This document shows positions 4,783-59,417 of a stretch of DNA of 64,000 nucleotides, in pieces. The first letter of the stretch is position 1. Each line of letters starts with the position of its first letter. Location of the stretch: contig CAYJVO010000001.1 of the NCBI GenBank assembly GCA_964373675.1, forward strand, positions 4,327-68,326. The letters are read 5' to 3'. Origin of the DNA: an uncultured Candidatus Saccharibacteria bacterium (lineage in GTDB: Bacteria; Patescibacteriota; Minisyncoccia; UBA6257; WO2-44-18). Both the position numbers and the translations under genes were made by a program. The notes beneath the pieces are model-generated. The model searched no databases. It was not told where the DNA came from and saw only the letters and a list, made by a program, of their open reading frames with translations.

Positions 4783-4859
4783 TGGCTGGGGAGCTAGGGC
4801 TCGAACCTAGAAGTCTCCTGCTCCAAAGGCAGGCGTGTTACCAATTACACCACTCCCCA
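4783..4859 (-). tRNA. tRNA-Gln (anticodon UUG)
   Basis: The reverse complement folds as a cloverleaf: acceptor UGGGGAG/CUCCCCA with the U1:A72 pair typical of bacterial tRNA-Gln. Anticodon stem CCUGC/GCAGG, loop CUUUGGA, T-loop TTCGAGC, encoded CCA. Confidence 0.85.
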
Positions 4860-4976: not shown

Positions 4977-5058
4977 TTTATTCTCCTTCGCCGAAAACCC
5001 CGGGCGGCCTACTCCGCCGAAGTAGCTTCAGCTACGAAGGCTGGATAAGGCCGTGGAG
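4977..5058 (+). repeat. Dispersed ~85-bp element, family A copy 1 (candidate structured RNA)
   Basis: Near-identical copies at 22721-22810 and 32015-32105, all on the + strand. Contains palindromic hairpins GTAGCTTCAGCTAC. Confidence 0.6.
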
Positions 5059-5068
5059 CTACATTTAT

Positions 5069-5147: not shown

Positions 5148-5906
5148 ATGCGTTTTCGCGTTTTATTTATTATAGGAACACTTGCTGTTCTTTTAGTCGT
5201 CGGTGTCGCTCAGGCGAACCATTCTTGGGGAGGGTATCACTGGGCGCGTACCGCCAACCCATTCACCTTGAAGCTTGGCGACAACGTTGGAGCGGTCTGG
5301 GACGGCCACCTTACTACCGCATCAGGCGATTGGAGCGTGTCTTCGGCGTTAGACACCACAATTATTGCCGGTCAATCCAAAGGGAATTGTCGGCCCACCA
5401 ACGGGCGGGTAGAGGTTTGCAACAGAACCTACGGTTTCAATGGCTGGCTTGGTTTGGCGCAGATCTGGGTTACCAGCGATCAGCATATCACCAACGGTGT
5501 GGTCAAACTCAACGACACTTATTTCAACACCCCGACTTATAACACTCCGGCCTGGCGAAATCTTGTAGTGTGTCAGGAAATCGGCCATACGATTGGCCTT
5601 GATCATCAAGACGAGAATTTCAGCAATCCACCACTCGGCACTTGCATGGATTACTCAAGCGATCCTACGCCCAACCAGCATCCTAATCAGCATGACTACG
5701 ACCAACTGGAAGCGATCTACGCTCACCTTGATTCAGTAACCACGCTTTCCCAATCAAACGTTTCTAATAGGCGTGATGCCAATCACGAAGATTCGGGAGA
5801 ATGGGGTAAGTCCAGGAAGCGTGACGCTCGCGGCCGAACATCCATCTACGAACAAGATCTCGGCAAAGGCGAAAAGGTGTTCACCTTTGTATTCTGGACA
5901 GAATAG
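5148..5906 (+). CDS. Secreted metzincin-like protein (putative zinc metalloprotease, non-canonical motif)
   Basis: Signal peptide MRFRVLFIIGTLAVLLVVGVAQA. The QEIGHTIGLDH stretch fits HExxHxxGxxH with Gln in place of the first His. A downstream Cys/Met segment (GTCMDYSSDP) resembles a Met-turn, snapalysin-like. Confidence 0.5.
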   Translation: MRFRVLFIIGTLAVLLVVGVAQANHSWGGYHWARTANPFTLKLGDNVGAVWDGHLTTASGDWSVSSALDTTIIAGQSKGNCRPTNGRVEVCNRTYGFNGWLGLAQIWVTSDQHITNGVVKLNDTYFNTPTYNTPAWRNLVVCQEIGHTIGLDHQDENFSNPPLGTCMDYSSDPTPNQHPNQHDYDQLEAIYAHLDSVTTLSQSNVSNRRDANHEDSGEWGKSRKRDARGRTSIYEQDLGKGEKVFTFVFWTE

Positions 5907-22700: not shown

Positions 22701-22725
22701 TCCCGCCACGGCGGGATTATTTATT
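22699..22725 (+). terminator. Rho-independent terminator
   Basis: ATCCCGCC-ACG-GCGGGAT hairpin followed by ATTTATT. Confidence 0.6.
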
Positions 22726-22810
22726 CTCCTTCGCCGAAAACCCCGGACGGCCTACTCCGCCGAAGTAGCTTCAGTTACGAAGGCTGGATAAGGCCGTGGA
22801 GTTTCATTTG
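22721..22810 (+). repeat. Family A element, copy 2
   Basis: Differs from copy 1 by a few substitutions, including C to T giving GTAGCT/AGTTAC, which stays G:U-compatible. Confidence 0.6.
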
Positions 22811-26812: not shown

Positions 26813-28706
26813 ACTTATAGATAAATATAGATTTCCCGGCTCTTGCGTAAGGTTTATATGGTTCGGTGAGCCATTCGTATTCATCAGCCGGATTGCGCTG
26901 ACCGGCACCCAGTCTTCCTTTCGCCCCCTGAATCGTATTTATGGAAACCGCTAGCCATTCTATGCCGGCTTCTTCTTTGGGATTTCCCTTCGCAGAATTC
27001 CATAATTCCGCCGTTTCACCTAAATAATAATTTGGGTTGCTGCCGCCAAAATAGTCCACCGCAATCTTCTTAATGTCATTGTCCTGGCCATTGTCATTGT
27101 TTTGTTCAGCTACCCATGTCGCTAATCGCTTAAGATCTTGTCCCCAATCATAGTTGGAATCCACAACCCGCAAATAACCCTTGGAAGCGCCGCCGCCCAG
27201 AAAGTTAAAGTAAGAAAGAAAATTGGGGTAAACGATAATCGTTGATGCCAGAAACCAACCCAGTAAAATCGCCAAAACAAGGGCTTTAATTACCAAACCG
27301 GTAAATTCGCCAATCACCGCCATCAGCCGGACAATTTTGTTTTTATAACTCAAAACCTCTTCCAAGCTGAAAAATCGTTTTAAAACTCCGACGGCCAGGA
27401 TGTACGTAAACGGCATAGTCGGCAAAAGATGCCGGACACCGATGTTCAAAATACTGGTTATACTGGAGAGCCAGTAGATTACTACAAACAAAATCATCGC
27501 AAATTCGCTAAAATGAGTAGTCAGATACTCAAACACAATCAGCGATCTTTTAAATAGGGTGGCGAAGAGGCCGCGAAAAACTCCCGCTAGTCCTGTTATT
27601 ATGCCAAAAATAATGATTAAAAGACTCGGTAGGGGTTCTTTCAGCAAAAAAACAACCGGAAAATAATACCACCATCCTTCGTTGGAAACCTCGTCAAGAA
27701 AATAAGCAGTATTGCCGCCAGCCGCCCGCTGGGAAACCATTAAAAGGCCGAGCAAATATTCGCCGATTGGTCGTAAAACATGGTTACTGCTCATCCAGGC
27801 GACGGAATCGGCTAAAAACCGCGGCGTGAAAGTTCTTAGCAAGTTTTCAGCGTCACCAACTTGTTTTTCAATTGGGTAATTCCAAGTTAAAATCCCATAA
27901 ACTAAATAAACGGCGGCGAAACCTATCAAAAAAATCATTGCCAAAGAACGAAAATAGCGGTAAAAACGGATGGCGAAGCGCCGCATACGGCCTCGCTGAA
28001 GGTCCGTCATCTGCCAATCCCGAAAAACGCTCACTGCATAAAAAACCGTCATTAAAATAATAAAATATGGCCCAAGCAAAAAATTGGAAAATTTGAAAAG
28101 CTGGGCGATTCCAAATGCTAAGCCGGCAAAAATCAGATGCCGGCGAATGGGTGAAGATAAAAATTTTAAGAAAAAATAAACTGCCAAAAATACTCCCAAA
28201 GCGGCACCGATATCAGTAGTAACATAATGACCGTGAGCCAGTACGGTAGGAGAGAAAGCAAATAAAAAAACCGGCAGCAGCGCCCACCAGCGGCCGATCA
28301 ATTCTTTGGCAAATAAATAAATCAATATGGTTAAAATCAGTGTCAGTAAAATTGGCCCGAGACGGGACGAAAAAATAATCTTGTCTGCGTTATTGCCGCT
28401 TTCGTAAAGAAATTTAGTTCCGAGCGTCCATTGTTCATTAATGCCGGTTTGCCATTCTGCCACATCTCGCGAAAAATTCAGGTTCTGAAAAAGCAGGGGC
28501 AATCCTGCAAGAATTTTAACTAAAGGCGGGTGTTCTGGATTCAACCGGTAGTCCAAATAACGCACGTAACCGTAGCCCGCTGGTATATGGGCGAGTTCGT
28601 CCATAATCGCTGAATCGCCTCGGCTAGCACCTAGCATCCATAGACCGCTTACTATGACCATAACGATGACCAATGACCAACGAATAAAAGTGGAAAGGCG
28701 ATGCAT
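26808..28706 (-). CDS. GT-C fold ArnT/PMT-like (GT39/GT83) membrane glycosyltransferase
   Basis: 632 aa polytopic protein. First loop DELAHIPAGYGYVRYLDYRLNPEHPPLVKIL carries the DE...PPL signature of PMT/ArnT enzymes. Confidence 0.75.
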   Translation of the reverse strand: MHRLSTFIRWSLVIVMVIVSGLWMLGASRGDSAIMDELAHIPAGYGYVRYLDYRLNPEHPPLVKILAGLPLLFQNLNFSRDVAEWQTGINEQWTLGTKFLYESGNNADKIIFSSRLGPILLTLILTILIYLFAKELIGRWWALLPVFLFAFSPTVLAHGHYVTTDIGAALGVFLAVYFFLKFLSSPIRRHLIFAGLAFGIAQLFKFSNFLLGPYFIILMTVFYAVSVFRDWQMTDLQRGRMRRFAIRFYRYFRSLAMIFLIGFAAVYLVYGILTWNYPIEKQVGDAENLLRTFTPRFLADSVAWMSSNHVLRPIGEYLLGLLMVSQRAAGGNTAYFLDEVSNEGWWYYFPVVFLLKEPLPSLLIIIFGIITGLAGVFRGLFATLFKRSLIVFEYLTTHFSEFAMILFVVIYWLSSITSILNIGVRHLLPTMPFTYILAVGVLKRFFSLEEVLSYKNKIVRLMAVIGEFTGLVIKALVLAILLGWFLASTIIVYPNFLSYFNFLGGGASKGYLRVVDSNYDWGQDLKRLATWVAEQNNDNGQDNDIKKIAVDYFGGSNPNYYLGETAELWNSAKGNPKEEAGIEWLAVSINTIQGAKGRLGAGQRNPADEYEWLTEPYKPYARAGKSIFIYKF

Positions 28707-28814: not shown

Positions 28815-28994
28815 TTAGGGAAGATAATAAACCAAAACATAAACCGTTCCATCTGTGTGTTCACCGTGCCCGACAGCTGATAAAGCTATAGAAAGTATCT
28901 CGGGCTGTTCTTGCATAATCCAATCATTTATAGAATCCTCAAGCGTCTTAGTACTACCGCTCCCTGCTGCAAAAACTTTTACTCTTTCGTACAT
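28815..28994 (-). CDS. Small hypothetical protein (59 aa), absent from the ORF track
   Basis: Open frame MYERVKVFAAGSGSTKTLEDSINDWIMQEQPEILSIALSAVGHGEHTDGTVYVLVYYLP with ATG start and TAA stop. Followed by a hairpin plus T-run. Confidence 0.35.
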   Translation of the reverse strand: MYERVKVFAAGSGSTKTLEDSINDWIMQEQPEILSIALSAVGHGEHTDGTVYVLVYYLP

Positions 28995-29100
28995 TCAAAC
29001 TCACTCTTAAAATACCTGTGGTAGTGTAACAATTTACCAGTGAATTTGCAAATCATAAAACTCGCTTGTCATCGTTATAGTCATTTGTCATAGTCAATTT

Positions 29101-29499
29101 GTGATAAAGTTTCCTAAAAACACAAAAGAATATCACTGGACCCAGCATATTAAAAATAAGATGCTTTTTTACCGCCTTTCGGAGCAAAAAATCCGGTCAA
29201 TTTTAAAATCCTACGACCGCAAAGAAGGGGGGATCGCGGCCAACACAATGGCAGTTATGAAACGCAACGATACGCCAAAACGACAGGAGGAAATTTGGCT
29301 CATGTACGCCATTAGTGGAATGGGTAATGCGACAAGTAAAACGGCTAAACCGATTCGTCCGTTTAACATGTCGCGTTCTGCATTTAACAAACTAACCATG
29401 ATTAGCGCTTGGCGATATCCGGGGAAAAGCAAACCGGGGAAACTGATTCCCATACCGGACGATATTTTACAGGAAATTAAAGATGTTTGGTTCGTTTAG
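29101..29499 (+). CDS. Hypothetical protein
   Basis: 132 aa, GTG start immediately after the TGTCATAGTCA motif. Basic, with no recognisable domain. Confidence 0.4.
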   Translation: MIKFPKNTKEYHWTQHIKNKMLFYRLSEQKIRSILKSYDRKEGGIAANTMAVMKRNDTPKRQEEIWLMYAISGMGNATSKTAKPIRPFNMSRSAFNKLTMISAWRYPGKSKPGKLIPIPDDILQEIKDVWFV

Positions 29500-29540
29500 T
29501 TTCTTATGCTAAAGTTATATTGGTTCTTTAGAAGTAAAAT

Positions 29541-30479
29541 ATGAAACTGCCGTTGCCGGAAGTGAAGTACCTTTTGCGACAATCTTTTTGCAAGGATACC
29601 AGTTTCACGCCAGACAAATGGGCGCCCGAGAATCCGACCTACGGTCATTGCGCGGTTGCAGTTCTTATTGCGCAAGATATTTTAGGAGGCGAAATTCGCC
29701 GCGGACTTTTGCCTAAAGAGTGGGCGGAAAAGCTCGGATACCGGTCGCATTATTGGAATGTCGGACTAGAAGCAAAGCCTAACTATTTTGATATTACCGC
29801 GGAGCAATTCCCCAAAGATTTTCCTTATGACGATTTTATTAATGGAATGTTTGAAGAAAACCCCGATCTTGCCGACAAGCGTGAGTACCTATTGTCCAAT
29901 CCTGAAACTAAGAAGCGCTATAAAATACTAAAAGAGCGGTTCGAGGCAACGCTTCGTTCCAATCCATTGTATCTGGACGAAAAGTTTCAGCTTTGCTGGG
30001 AAACGGCTTTTGCCGGCGGACCGCGCTGCAAGAAAATGGTCTTTGCTTGTCTCGTTTATGATGGCAATCGGCTGATCTCGTGGGAAGTCAATCGGCTGAT
30101 GACCGAACGGTTCGGCCAGCCGCGATTCTGCGCCATTGATGGCTCGGAGTGCATCCGGGTGAATATCCAAAGCCGAATGGACGCGACGGTTGGTGATTGC
30201 GGACATGCCCCGGTTTGGTCGCTGGCCAGAGTTTTCGAACTCGGTTACAAACCGGGCGATCTCCCGAAACTCGACTTCTACGAAGCCGGTTTCCGCCCGG
30301 ACGGATCTCCTTGGTGGCGAAATGAACCCAGCTACTCCTGCACTTATTGTCAGAATATATTTGCGATTTTCGGACTCGACAAGATTTGGGGCACTTGCTA
30401 CAACCAGTGGATGCCTCTCCGGACGCAAGACTCTTTTTATTCCTCCGGCAAATACGCCCTTGGGGAAAAGAAAGTTTAG
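29541..30479 (+). CDS. Cys/His-rich hypothetical protein; C-terminal half weakly deaminase-fold-like
   Basis: 312 aa. GC visibly higher than neighbours, and long shadow ORFs lie on both strands. The C-terminal segment ACLVYDGNRLISWEVN...CGHAPVW...SCTYCQNIFAIFG resembles the CDA-fold layout (H-A-x ... C-x2-C) but has Pro where the catalytic Glu would be. Confidence 0.55.
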   Translation: MKLPLPEVKYLLRQSFCKDTSFTPDKWAPENPTYGHCAVAVLIAQDILGGEIRRGLLPKEWAEKLGYRSHYWNVGLEAKPNYFDITAEQFPKDFPYDDFINGMFEENPDLADKREYLLSNPETKKRYKILKERFEATLRSNPLYLDEKFQLCWETAFAGGPRCKKMVFACLVYDGNRLISWEVNRLMTERFGQPRFCAIDGSECIRVNIQSRMDATVGDCGHAPVWSLARVFELGYKPGDLPKLDFYEAGFRPDGSPWWRNEPSYSCTYCQNIFAIFGLDKIWGTCYNQWMPLRTQDSFYSSGKYALGEKKV

Positions 30480-30492
30480 AGAAAAAGACCCG

Positions 30493-31608
30493 CTAAACGG
30501 GTCTTTTTGCTAAATCATAATTTCTCCAGCCGGGTTCTCCGGTAATTTCGCGTACTTCGCCAAGCCAATCAGGAATTTCTACCCGATCGTTTTCTTTTGT
30601 AAGCTCCACTTCCAAAAGCATTAGTCCCCAACAATGATACGGCTCCAGGAATAAATCCAGTTCAAAATACTGGTTTTTCCAGATAAAACAGCATCTTTCT
30701 TTGTGGATTGTTTTCCGTTCGGGGTCCCTCTGCGATAAAAGTTCATAATATCGCTGGGCGCTGATTTGAGTTTCCCGCTCTTCCCGCGCTTTTGCTGAAG
30801 CCGACGGTATTTTAAAAGTCTGGTAATAATCTGCCGCTTCGCCTTGCTTTCGCTTTCTGATCCTGCCAGCGGTTGCCCCGCCGTCTTTGCTAACAAGATA
30901 CGCCTGATCAATGTTTAACCGTTGATAAGGAACCGGCAGTTTTTGAATACTGAATCCTTTTACTAAAAACTTTCTTTTAATTTCCAGCGAAACTGGCATG
31001 CCGATGGATTTTTGCGCCGCTCTTATCAACCGCTTCATTTTTTCTTCAAACAAGAAGGAATTATCAATAATTACCAGGTGCGGATGACCGACCCAGGCTT
31101 CCTGGGTGCGCTTATCGGTCTTACGCGCCTCTTCCGGAGTTTCATAGCGAGTAGGATTATCTAAATTATAAAATTTTTCTTTGCCATCAGCAGCCGTTAC
31201 TAAATGAAAAACCGCCTCATAACGCTTATCCCTCAAACCCACTAAACTCCAGTGATTTTTATTCAGCAGTAGCTCAAATTCTTCGGGACGCAAATAAGCA
31301 GCCATGTCCATACAACCGCGATCCATCAATAAAACCTGCTTTTTCCCACCTTTAGCACGGAGTAAATTACCGTAATGCCGCTCGTCGGACATCTGCTTTT
31401 TAATAATAGTTTCTTCAAACTTCAAATAATCCCGGCGTGAAACCCGCCGCAAAAGCTCTTGCGGCCCTATACCGCCATTAATAATTTGTGTAGCTACCTC
31501 GGGAACAACCACTACTGACAATCCATAATCGGAGAGTTTTTCATAAAGATAGTGAAGTCCAGTAGTCTTTCCAGAGCACGGCCCGCCAGTCAGGACTATT
31601 CGCTTCAT
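30493..31608 (-). CDS. P-loop NTPase (AAA_28/NadR-kinase-like) fused to a C-terminal CYTH (triphosphate tunnel metalloenzyme) domain
   Basis: N-terminal Walker A IVLTGGPCSGKTT...VVVVPEVATQII and Walker B LLMDRG. C-terminal LEIKRKFLV ... LLEVELTKENDRVEIPDWLGEVREITGEPGWRNYDLAK matches the CYTH N-terminal signature (ExExK-like) and C-terminal signature (EhEh...P.W.G.EVT..P.Y.N..LA). Confidence 0.7.
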   Translation of the reverse strand: MKRIVLTGGPCSGKTTGLHYLYEKLSDYGLSVVVVPEVATQIINGGIGPQELLRRVSRRDYLKFEETIIKKQMSDERHYGNLLRAKGGKKQVLLMDRGCMDMAAYLRPEEFELLLNKNHWSLVGLRDKRYEAVFHLVTAADGKEKFYNLDNPTRYETPEEARKTDKRTQEAWVGHPHLVIIDNSFLFEEKMKRLIRAAQKSIGMPVSLEIKRKFLVKGFSIQKLPVPYQRLNIDQAYLVSKDGGATAGRIRKRKQGEAADYYQTFKIPSASAKAREERETQISAQRYYELLSQRDPERKTIHKERCCFIWKNQYFELDLFLEPYHCWGLMLLEVELTKENDRVEIPDWLGEVREITGEPGWRNYDLAKRPV

Positions 31609-31713
31609 TAATTAACTGTCAAAAGACTATAACCATTATATATTGACCTCTCTCCACCGTCCAAATTTATTTAAAAATCTGCTATACTGGAAGCAGTTCC
31701 TTTGAAGTGTTAA

Positions 31714-32001
31714 ATGGCGTTTAAAAAGGAATGCTTGATAGAAAAAGCTACAGAAGTAGAGATATTGGACGCGCTTCGTAAAGCAGGCCATCCGTTGGAT
31801 AGACACGAATTTTTTTTACACATTTTTCTTAATAGATGCGAACTTATTGGCTACGATGGCAGTAATATAGAAAGATCGGTGACTCTTTTGGAATTTTACG
31901 ATAAATGCATAGCGGGGAATGTATTACAGACAGTATGGGCTATGATTGACCAAGGGAAAATCTGCTTAAACTTTGATAGAAAATTGGAATTGCCCAAATA
32001 A
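31714..32001 (+). CDS. Hypothetical protein
   Basis: 95 aa with no recognisable domain. Followed directly by family A copy 3. Confidence 0.4.
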   Translation: MAFKKECLIEKATEVEILDALRKAGHPLDRHEFFLHIFLNRCELIGYDGSNIERSVTLLEFYDKCIAGNVLQTVWAMIDQGKICLNFDRKLELPK

Positions 32002-32014
32002 CATTGGGCTTTTT

Positions 32015-32105
32015 TATTCTCCTTCGCCGAAAACCCCGGGCGGCCTACTCCGCCGTAGTAGCCTACGGCTACGAAGGCTGGATAAGACCGTGGAGCTTCA
32101 TTTCC
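32015..32105 (+). repeat. Family A element, copy 3
   Basis: Carries the CCGTAG/CTACGG and GTAGCC/GGCTAC variants, which are compensatory relative to copies 1 and 2. Confidence 0.6.
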
Positions 32106-32131
32106 AACTGCTATCCCGCGGGATAGCAGTT
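32106..32131. repeat. Family D 'CTGCTATC' hairpin, copy D1
   Basis: AACTGCTATCC-CGCG-GGATAGCAGTT perfect hairpin. The same stem sequence recurs in D2 and D3. Confidence 0.6.
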
Positions 32132-32223: not shown

Positions 32224-32275
32224 TTTGACGCGTCAAAACACTGCTATCATGCGTGATAGCAGTGTTTCTTTTACG
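32224..32275 (+). repeat. Family D composite: TTGACGCGTCAA palindrome plus CACTGCTATCA hairpin (D2), terminator-like
   Basis: TTTGACGCGTCAAAACACTGCTATCA-TGCGT-GATAGCAGTGTT then TCTTTTAC. Near-exact inverted copy at 36231-36279. Confidence 0.65.
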
Positions 32276-32464
32276 TGTGGAAGAGATACAAATTGAAAGA
32301 TACTGGCATTAACTCTTCTACGATTATTGTTTTCCCCCAAAAGCCAAGCGTTAACGGCTTTACTCAAATTGACTAAGCGCCGTACAAATTAGGCGCAATT
32401 TGGTTTCTTTTATTAAAGACATCCGTTCTCTGGTAGTGTCAAATTCGCGGTTTTTTATTTACTT

Positions 32465-32496
32465 TTGTCATCGTCATTGTTATAGTCATGGTCATG
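32465..32496 (+). repeat. Family E 'TGTCAT(C/A)GT..ATAGTCAT' motif abutting a start codon
   Basis: TTGTCATCGTCATTGTTATAGTCATGGTCATG, with the ychF ATG inside it. Related copies at 29066-29098 (before the GTG at 29101) and 46145-46174 (before rplR, opposite orientation). Confidence 0.4.
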
Positions 32497-36230: not shown

Positions 36231-36279
36231 CACTGCTATCATACATACTAGCAGTGTTTTGACGCGTCAAAACACTGCT
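36231..36279. repeat. Family D composite (D3), inverted relative to D2
   Basis: CACTGCTATCA-TACATAC-TAGCAGTG hairpin plus the perfect 30-bp palindrome AGCAGTGTTTTGACGCGTCAAAACACTGCT. The palindrome encodes the last 4 codons and stop of the downstream minus-strand gene. Confidence 0.65.
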
Positions 36280-58298: not shown

Positions 58299-58721
58299 TT
58301 AACTTGTTGCTTCCTTCGGCATCTTCGCGCCATACCCCGACCGTTGCTGCCTTCTTGCTTCCACGCCAGAGGCGTCCAGGACGCCGCGCACAATATGATA
58401 ACGGACGCCCGGCAAATCTTTTGCGCGTCCGCCGCGAACCATAACCACTGAGTGTTCCTGTAAATTATGACCTTCTCCCGGAATATAAGCGGTTATTTCC
58501 ATTCCGTTGGTTAAACGCACGCGCGCCACTTTGCGCAAAGCAGAGTTTGGTTTTTTTGGCGTCGTAGTAAAAACCTTCAAACAGACGCCGCGCTTAAATG
58601 GCGACGCCACCTTGACCGGTTTATTTTTAAGCGTGTTGAAATAACGCCTCATGGCCGGCGCTTTGGACTTATACACAGTCACTTTTCTTCCCTTTTTAAT
58701 AAGCTGCCTGATGGTCGGCAT
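58299..58721 (-). CDS. rpsL: 30S ribosomal protein S12 with short C-terminal extension
   Basis: [12 protein letters not shown]...[11 protein letters not shown]...HNLQEHS motifs. 140 aa. Confidence 0.9.
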
Positions 58722-58760: not shown

Positions 58761-59417
58761 ATGTTATACTTAAAATTAATGAATTATTTAACCGTTTTGC
58801 TGTTTCAGCTCTTCGTGCTCGTCTTTTCCGTTATCATTCACGAAGTATCTCATGGTTTAATGGCTTTACGCTTGGGGGATACTACTGCTAGAGACGCCGG
58901 CCGATTGACTTTAAACCCCTTAAAACACCTGGATTTTTTTGGTTCATTTATCGTGCCGATCACGCTTTTTCTGCTCTCCGGAGGCACTCTAGTTCTGGGT
59001 TGGGCAAAACCGGTTCCTTACAATCCTTACAATTTAAAAAACCCCAAATTAAGCGCCGCCCTTATCGGTCTGGCTGGTCCATTAAGCAATATTCTGGTGG
59101 CGCTGATTTTCGGATTGCTGATTCGCGTACCTCTGCCAGCAGAACTTGTTGTTCCCTTAACCCTGATGGCTTTTTTCAACTTTATAGTTTTTATAAATGT
59201 TTTGCTGGCGGTTTTTAATCTTGTACCTATTCCGCCGCTGGACGGTTCCAATATCCTCTTTTCTCTGATGCCGCGGCAGCTGGCTGCCATTCAAAGATTT
59301 TTGGAGCGCTACGGAATTTTTATTCTTATTTTCTTTATCTTTTTTGGATTTCAGTTTATTTTTCCGGTCGTCTACGCGCTCTATCGCCTCATTGTTGGCG
59401 GAGAAGTTGCCTTCTAA
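58761..59417 (+). CDS. M50 family membrane metalloprotease (SpoIVFB/site-2 protease-like, short)
   Basis: HEVSHGLMA (HExxH) inside TM1, and a second conserved LDG motif (PIPPLDGSNIL) in a later TM. Confidence 0.75.
   Translation: MLYLKLMNYLTVLLFQLFVLVFSVIIHEVSHGLMALRLGDTTARDAGRLTLNPLKHLDFFGSFIVPITLFLLSGGTLVLGWAKPVPYNPYNLKNPKLSAALIGLAGPLSNILVALIFGLLIRVPLPAELVVPLTLMAFFNFIVFINVLLAVFNLVPIPPLDGSNILFSLMPRQLAAIQRFLERYGIFILIFFIFFGFQFIFPVVYALYRLIVGGEVAF

Follow-up and report, generated by a model that had tools for sequence, protein, structure and literature searches.

A rare YunG-deaminase-fold fusion gene with a putatively rebuilt zinc site, next to a kinase-CYTH gene in resident DNA of a Parcubacteria-type bacterium

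What are the four genes at 29101-32001 of a 64,000-nt stretch of bacterial DNA (the window, in whose coordinates all positions are given), between a PMT_2 glycosyltransferase gene and ychF? An initial annotation had taken them for an accessory block: bracketed by repeats, compositionally distinct, of foreign origin and possibly related to defense or toxins. Its two most distinctive members are a gene for a 312-amino acid (aa) protein (29541-30479, plus strand), a fusion of a YunG domain to a deaminase-fold domain, and a convergent gene for a P-loop kinase-CYTH fusion of 371 aa (30493-31608, minus strand). The block is resident chromosomal DNA of a Parcubacteria-type bacterium of the Candidate Phyla Radiation (CPR), made up mostly of ordinary, vertically inherited genes, and is not an island. 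For the whole, the best explanation is a resident fusion with a remodeled, functional nucleotide-acting zinc site, accompanied by a separate kinase-CYTH neighbor; we give it an even chance of being right.

The 312-aa protein: a YunG domain fused to a deaminase-fold domain

The C-terminal domain of the 312-aa protein (residues 141-312; 29961-30479, plus strand) has the three-layer alpha/beta/alpha architecture and five-stranded sheet of the deaminase superfamily. The C-terminal half had been described as deaminase-like but without the canonical Glu, and a cytidine/deoxycytidine monophosphate (dCMP) deaminase fold was indeed found, as was the underlying motif, H222-A-P224 … S266-C267-x2-C270 with no Glu two residues after the His. 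H222 (codon 30204-30206) stands directly before helix 2 (223-233), and C267 and C270 (30339-30350) are at the start of helix 3 (268-277); these three zinc ligands are 94-100% conserved in the clade that shares the HAP motif. Residue 224 (30210-30212), where an H-x-E Glu would be expected, is P in most of the close family (35/41) and otherwise V, S, I or Q; in the nearest outliers of that family it is P, Y, L or V, and in neither group is it ever E. All 66 more remote relatives carry E there. Four putative second-site cysteines, C163, C197, C204 and C220, are invariant and occupy the positions known from the dCMP deaminase/ComE clade, whose signature is a Cys before strand 1 combined with a Cys-bearing insert before helix 2 (Iyer et al., PMC3239186); that insert caps the site and allows entry to a soluble base only (PMC3239186). 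The zinc insert is the least confident part of the AlphaFold2 model (residues 197-203 have pLDDT values below 50). Strands 281-286 and 289-294 of the model are joined by a tight turn into a hairpin, and helix 4 of the dCMP deaminase/ComE clade is absent. The protein had also been called Cys/His-rich: it is rich in Cys (11) and in Trp (10), but has only 3 His.

Two features had been overlooked: the N-terminal YunG domain, and the replacement of the lost Glu elsewhere in the fold. Canonical members of the wider family read G-A-C-x-H-A-E-E … L-Y-V-A-G-F … [FH]-[TS]-C-x-R-C, and members of the window's clade G-D-C-G-H-A-P-x-W … F-Y-E-A-G-F … Y-[ST]-C-x-x-C. The exchange of glutamates is without exception: none of the 66 sequences with H-x-E has a strand-3 Glu, and every one of the 47 that lack H-x-E does, at the position of E248 in the window protein (30282-30284). 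The 47 comprise 7 sequences of one alignment (A4, window protein included) and 40 further members of another (A1). Fixed switches to the HAP type are A219D, E224P, V248E, F265Y, M274F and A298S; common to both types are C163, K165, N184, C197, C204, R206, R212, C220, H222, C267, C270 and W290. Within the HAP type the C-terminal domains are 55-82% identical, vs. 34-68% for the YunG domains; the stronger conservation of the C-terminal domain speaks for selection and against decay.

The N-terminal domain (residues 1-140; 29541-29960, plus strand) matches Pfam PF24585 with 72.3 bits against a cutoff of 27, over residues 7-138 and model positions 4-115 of 116. It shares W, NP, G-x-C, H, N, D and QF with Bacillus subtilis YunG (PF24585), but known YunG proteins are standalone and about 115 aa long, whereas the one in the window continues into a deaminase-fold domain. 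W27, N31-P32, G35, C37, H70, N73, D84 and Q89-F90 are invariant across a standalone YunG (a Lysinibacillus plasmid gene) and fusions of both HAE and HAP types; among these, Cys37 is encoded at 29649-29651, His70 at 29748-29750 and Asp84 at 29790-29792. In the model, Cys37 is found at the N-terminal end of a helix and His70 within a strand, a predicted layout that is that of papain-like or transglutaminase-like thiol enzymes, and we infer that the domain may be a thiol-dependent hydrolase or transferase.

Both the fusion and its C-terminal domain are rare. Among 5.8 billion proteins there are 41 close, mostly full-length relatives, none of them named in the search; 2 proteins came back when a word-indexed homolog search was run with only the YunG domain, and a profile of the C-terminal domain found 98 clusters among 1.84 billion representatives. 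In a motif scan with confirmed loci, the window's subfamily occurs in 6 of 185,579 species-representative genomes: three Giovannonibacteria, one Paceibacteria, and two bins labeled Saccharibacteria. Of 73 aligned relatives of the C-terminal domain, 64 match PF00383 and 22 carry YunG; since the latter belong to the wider family, the YunG-deaminase fusion is older than the window's subfamily. The family is CPR-restricted and, as far as we could find, unstudied, and its YunG plus deaminase-fold architecture is undescribed.

Gene order, composition and the question of an island

Is the block conserved in relatives of the host? On one related contig (L003), the window's gene order is kept within a longer syntenic stretch, with two unrelated insertions. 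Identities to the window are 54% for seryl-tRNA synthetase, 59% for alanine racemase, 62% for the PMT_2 glycosyltransferase, 58% for the 132-aa product of the first block gene, 53% for the 312-aa protein, 47% for the convergent kinase-CYTH protein, 74% for YchF, 46% for a 135-aa gene product and 61% for a 759-aa type IV secretion system-like ATPase. A second contig (L010), with the closest kinase-CYTH relative (58%), keeps the alanine racemase, PMT, 132-aa and kinase-CYTH genes, and the 312-aa gene is absent from its syntenic slot. Conservation of the block between relatives, which the initial annotation had left in question, thus holds in part: three block genes stand in order in L003, and the 312-aa gene is missing from L010.

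Each gene behaves in its own way. The conserved hypothetical 132-aa gene (29101-29499, plus strand), divergent from the PMT_2 gene, goes along with it, lying beside it in both L003 (58%) and L010 (60%); its product has no match in Pfam, NCBIfam, PADLOC or PHROGs. The kinase-CYTH gene keeps a stable position. The 312-aa gene is a resident of the lineage, yet able to move or be lost: its nearest relatives (66 and 62% identical) are in other genomic contexts, and in Giovannonibacteria the YunG-deaminase fusion sits between an M50 peptidase gene and rpsL-rpsG-fusA, a place where the window has M50 (58761-59417) and rpsL (58299-58721) adjacent, 39 bp apart, with no fusion gene between them. The fourth gene, a 95-aa open reading frame (ORF; 31714-32001, plus strand) with a terminator-like hairpin after it at 31992-32009, is an orphan, without a homolog in L003, L010 or a third related locus, L012, or in protein-family libraries or phage records. 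The ORF listing agrees with the coordinates first given for all four genes and for two shadow ORFs of the 312-aa gene, of 166 aa (29928-30428, minus strand) and 107 aa (30190-30513, plus strand). A 59-aa minus-strand ORF at 28815-28994 (MYERVKVFAAGSGS…), in the 394-bp gap between the PMT and 132-aa genes, had not been listed; it has no PHROG match.

The neighbors of the fusion genes point to nucleotide salvage. In L012, a cytidine deaminase gene comes next after a HAE-type fusion, and then a convergent kinase-CYTH gene. A Giovannonibacteria locus (L015, 3847-6411) has three deaminase-fold genes just before rpsL-rpsG-fusA: a HAP-type fusion, a cytidine deaminase (197 aa) and, after a 98-aa ORF, a standalone HAEE member (165 aa). 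Elsewhere an inosine monophosphate dehydrogenase (IMPDH) gene is upstream of the fusion, with adenosine deaminase beside it (L001), or the upstream gene is IMPDH-like on inspection of its sequence (L016). Downstream genes vary between loci (about 18 loci). The 312-aa and kinase-CYTH genes are convergent direct neighbors in the window and in L003, and one gene apart in L012; in the other loci examined, about three quarters of contexts, the linkage is absent. A functional two-gene module is only a weak possibility, because the proximity is confined to the window, L003 and L012, the latter two are related, and the genes are convergent. L003 (8001-8963) and L012 (2005-2985) are themselves discordant: identity is 60% between the kinase-CYTH proteins and 59% between the YunG domains, vs. 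29.5% between the deaminase domains, which are of HAP type in L003 and HAE type in L012. This points to one of two histories, a swap of the C-terminal domain within a conserved locus or a burst of change in it.

Base composition sets apart one gene and not the block. Windowed GC reaches its maximum, 0.547, at 30000-30399 (window mean 0.429), and the GC richness first noted for the 312-aa gene is borne out: its GC is 0.497 (z +2.2) and its GC at third codon positions (GC3) 0.546 (z +2.8), the highest of the window's 66 long ORFs (mean 0.427, sd 0.043). The 132-aa, kinase-CYTH and 95-aa genes are ordinary or AT-rich (GC 0.424, 0.441, and 0.368). The excess lies chiefly in the C-terminal half of the 312-aa gene, where GC3 is 0.61 against 0.47 expected from its amino acid sequence and the window's own codon usage, above all 445 equal-size coding windows in other genes; in the N-terminal half it is 0.47, with the rise near the domain junction. 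About 40% of the C-half GC excess over the window mean comes from amino acid composition and the remainder is synonymous. Over the whole gene the synonymous excess is +0.096, compared with +0.093 for ychF and +0.089 for rpsL. A sharp GC3 break at the domain junction was considered and dropped, the two-segment change point within the gene not being significant (p = 0.08). The homolog is composed like its host (|z| <= 0.9) in each of six relatives, whose loci range in GC from 0.27 to 0.49; GC3 of the C-terminal half is mildly higher in four of these six. A compositionally distinct island is not what these values describe. The second-highest GC3 in the window belongs to a 252-aa ORF at 5148-5906 (GC 0.509, GC3 0.542; no Pfam match), and because it directly follows tRNA-Gln (4783-4859) and a 90-nt repeat copy, it makes a stronger case for a foreign insertion than the block does.

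Searches for the marks of mobility, defense or toxicity came back empty. No integrase-family match was found in any of the four block proteins in a Pfam scan, and no tRNA is near the block, the only ones in the window being at 4783 and 61085. PADLOC gave a single match on the four proteins, to the P-loop only (E 0.035). Outside its YunG domain the 312-aa protein matches no Pfam, NCBIfam, PADLOC or PHROG model; phage records have no match to the fusion, and plasmid records match standalone YunG only. It lacks the traits of a polymorphic toxin: its N-terminus is YunG, with no identifiable trafficking domain, and there is no adjacent recurrent immunity gene. Searches of PDB sequences with the protein and with the family profile returned nothing relevant. 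The locus is not a defense island, and that false lead can be set aside.

Possible activities of the fusion protein

Deaminase-fold enzymes serve in nucleotide salvage, in RNA and DNA editing, and as base-editing tools, and each new active-site design has broadened the known repertoire of the fold. In the reading preferred here, gene 29541-30479 would encode a two-domain cytoplasmic enzyme. Its C-terminal zinc domain descends from dCMP/cytidine deaminases and retains H222, C267 and C270, the cysteines C163/C197/C204/C220, and Asn184 of strand 2; in the window's clade the proton-shuttle Glu of H-x-E has been lost (H-A-P) and a strand-3 Glu gained (V248E) together with A219D, and the active site would have been rebuilt and not inactivated. 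This site would carry out zinc-dependent hydrolysis of a free pyrimidine or purine nucleotide or nucleoside within salvage, with the YunG domain either processing its substrate or bringing it in. Such a rebuilt, selected site acting on a free nucleotide or nucleoside is favored because of the glutamate swap, the shared Cys insert signature, the conservation of the C-terminal domain, and the precedent of the JAB domain, which in a deaminase-like fold transfers protons through a Glu on a strand (PMC3239186). A more specific version is possible, if doubtful: the HAP-type domain would be a working zinc hydrolase in which E248 on strand 3, perhaps aided by D219, has taken over the general acid/base role from helix 2. 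Its partner would be a thiol-dependent YunG domain, and their joint substrate something else than plain (d)CMP or cytidine. Speculatively, the two domains might salvage N-acylated or differently modified cytosine nucleotides in two steps, in bacteria without de novo nucleotide synthesis. If true, the relocated acid/base would be a catalytic arrangement undescribed in the deaminase superfamily.

Several known systems come close. With dCMP deaminase/ComEB as reference (PF00383; T4 Cd 1VQ2, S. mutans 2HVV, PBCV-1 bi-DCD 7FH4), the window clade differs in having H-A-P and not H-A-E, a strand-3 Glu, and a 15-residue insert between strand 3 and the CxxC; the window protein also has a strand 4-5 hairpin in the model and an N-terminal YunG, and scores below every Pfam deaminase model. 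The homotetrameric cytidine deaminases (CDA; 3DMO, 1JTK) and blasticidin-S deaminase form another comparison: CDA has C/H-A-E and PCxxCR motifs, no zinc-binding insert and a single domain. ADAT3/Tad3, the Glu-less partner of ADAT2, is eukaryotic, acts only as a heterodimer and has no compensating Glu, whereas the window clade has gained an invariant Glu and Asp. JAB/MPN metalloproteases are the same-fold precedent for a proton-transfer Glu borne on a strand and not on helix 2 (PMC3239186), but they have HxH + Asp zinc ligands, cleave isopeptide bonds and show no sequence relationship to the window domain.

Several points weigh against an active, rebuilt enzyme. All 47 sequences may owe the glutamate swap to one event in a common ancestor, in which case the correlation is weaker than the counts imply. 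Neither the 312-aa protein nor its isolated C-terminal domain matches a deaminase Pfam model at E <= 1 or 0.01, and the pairing of a CDA-like strand 4-5 hairpin with a dCMP-deaminase-type zinc insert makes placement in the superfamily ambiguous. Literature searches on YunG gave author-name matches only, with no biochemistry for YunG or for the fusion family. Gene neighborhoods in the loci examined are variable and have no universal partner gene.

The main rival is that the C-terminal domain is a dead pseudo-deaminase, keeping zinc and fold but acting as a substrate-binding or regulatory subunit of an active deaminase, as ADAT3/Tad3 does for ADAT2. Its best argument is the L015 cluster, where a HAP-type fusion lies near a standalone HAEE paralog and a cytidine deaminase that could be its partners. 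Most HAP-type loci, however, have no adjacent deaminase, and neither a HAE-type paralog nor a cytidine deaminase lies within the 64-kb window, the rest of the genome being unseen; moreover, E248 and D219 were gained and then kept in every member, and a buried Glu on a strand would be costly unless used. We regard a dead domain as conceivable but well short of probable. An inactive HAP subfamily would be a bacterial equivalent of the ADAT2/ADAT3 arrangement; an active one, a natural case of catalytic-residue migration, maybe with a new specificity.

The other alternatives concern the origin of the gene. A horizontally acquired defense or toxin module, whose deaminase-like and P-loop-CYTH proteins would act jointly on nucleotides, would account for the extreme GC3 of the C-terminal half, for the missing gene in L010 and its different locations in the closest fusion relatives and in Giovannonibacteria, for the unlike C-terminal domains of L003 and L012, and for the proximity of the two genes in the window and these two loci. 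It is largely refuted, and we consider it very improbable: the fusion is without PADLOC, PHROG or phage matches; integrase, adjacent tRNA, block-specific repeats, trafficking domain and recurring immunity-like neighbor are all missing; L003 shares the order of three of the four genes, and the homologs are compositionally native in six genomes; and the two genes, apart in about three quarters of contexts, are convergent and not co-transcribed, while the GC3 change point is not significant. What remains of a foreign origin (the L003/L012 discordance, the L010 loss and the C-half GC3) concerns one domain of one gene, not a module. A narrower possibility is recombination, in which a resident YunG-deaminase gene would have had its 3′ half exchanged for a HAP-type deaminase-domain cassette of a GC-richer relative. 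The step in GC3 from 0.47 to 0.61 near the domain junction and the discordant domain-wise identities among L003, L012 and the window would fit, but L008 is the nearest relative of either domain of the window protein (68 and 65%), the step has p = 0.08, four of six relatives share it mildly, and amino acid composition explains part of the GC excess; we think such a replacement rather unlikely.

The kinase-CYTH gene and the intergenic repeats

Gene 30493-31608 encodes a separate protein, a NadR/TMPK-like nucleoside or nucleotide kinase joined to a NeuTTM-like triphosphatase. The first reading of it as an AAA_28/NadR-kinase-like P-loop fused to a CYTH tunnel is upheld by Pfam and by a profile match. 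The kinase domain (residues 1-200; 31009-31608, minus strand) has a kinase fold, a Walker A motif, GGPCSGKT, and an above-threshold match to Pfam AAA_28 over residues 3-189. The CYTH/triphosphate-tunnel domain (residues 205-371; 30493-30996, minus strand) has an eight-stranded tunnel with its basic residues and an intact ExE (E333, E335); by the criteria of PMC8233210, ExE plus basic residues marks the triphosphatase type and not the cyclase type, which has Ala. A profile of 46 family members matches the inorganic triphosphatase NeuTTM of Nitrosomonas (E 2e-16). Homologs of the fusion form about 1990 clusters, many of them from Harrisonbacteria, Giovannonibacteria and unnamed CPR bins; one family member (P0120, 631 aa) has an extra Ser/Thr protein-kinase domain (PF00069/PF07714).

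The tunnel of the window protein departs from the family at one position. Its ExExK motif reads E209-I-K211-R-K213, with Lys at 211 (codon AAA at 30976-30978 of the minus-strand gene) where 45 of the 46 members have Glu; the window protein alone has Lys, a single G-to-A change. Both ExExK glutamates of SaTTM coordinate the two metal ions (PMC8233210), and by analogy E211K probably weakens metal binding in the tunnel. The change could mean inactivation of the tunnel, or could be an assembly or population variant. By a further analogy the tunnel may be impaired as in Arabidopsis TTM1, whose incompetent tunnel has been proposed to regulate the fused kinase (PMC9582702). The inorganic triphosphatases NeuTTM (NE1496; 2FBL/3TYP) and SaTTM differ from the window's CYTH domain, which is fused to a kinase and has Lys in place of the second ExExK Glu. 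Arabidopsis TTM1/TTM2 have the same order of P-loop kinase and CYTH tunnel (PMC9582702), but their kinase is UCK-like and not AAA_28/NadR-like, and they add a plant coiled coil and membrane anchor; plant and CPR fusions probably arose independently. Such fusions have been called unique to plants (PMC9582702), a description at odds with how common they are in CPR bacteria.

The repeats said to bracket the block are real and lie near the positions first given (E at 29066-29084, with relatives at 32471, 28654 and 31617; A at 32013; D at 32107 and 32236), but they do not delimit it: E is promoter-like, D is terminator-like and A is dispersed across the window. Their use as island borders was rejected, the same families occurring window-wide at promoter and terminator positions. 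The E element at 29066-29094 (plus strand; core GTTATAGTC) reads TTGTCA-17-CATAGT with a TG and ends 6 nt before the 132-aa start codon; further copies stand just before ychF (32458-32486, plus strand; TG-extended and promoter-like), upstream of the kinase-CYTH gene (31617-31636, minus strand) and, near 28654 on the opposite strand, inside the PMT coding region at its 5′ end. The A element at 32013-32102 is the third copy of a 90-nt intergenic repeat (the others are at 4977-5066 and 22720-22809, all on the plus strand). It forms a long imperfect hairpin (folding z about -3), whose apical stem in copy 3 is changed in sequence with pairing retained. No Rfam family matched it; it could be a repetitive extragenic palindromic (REP)-like element or a small RNA. 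The D palindromic hairpins are at 32107-32130 and 32236-32267 (plus strand), the second scoring as terminator-like, and a third copy (36231-36259) lies between two convergent genes. Numerous other dispersed intergenic repeat families occur across the window.

Two further observations concern the host's intergenic sequences more generally. TG-extended TATAGT/CATAGT boxes end 1-17 nt before start codons (32458-32488, 29066-29101, 31608-31636); at ychF, the last box position is 32486 and the start codon begins at 32488. Such spacing suggests leaderless or very-short-leader mRNAs in the host organism. There are also pairs of intergenic repeats of 69-143 nt, 88-94% identical, at 16207-16349/46731-46873, 54161-54269/58204-58312, 50538-50607/52373-52442 and 26713-26781/61003-61071. 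Many of these long pairs contain ATACGAAAT-type motifs and are located around ribosomal-protein and translation genes, with one copy beside tRNA-Ser.

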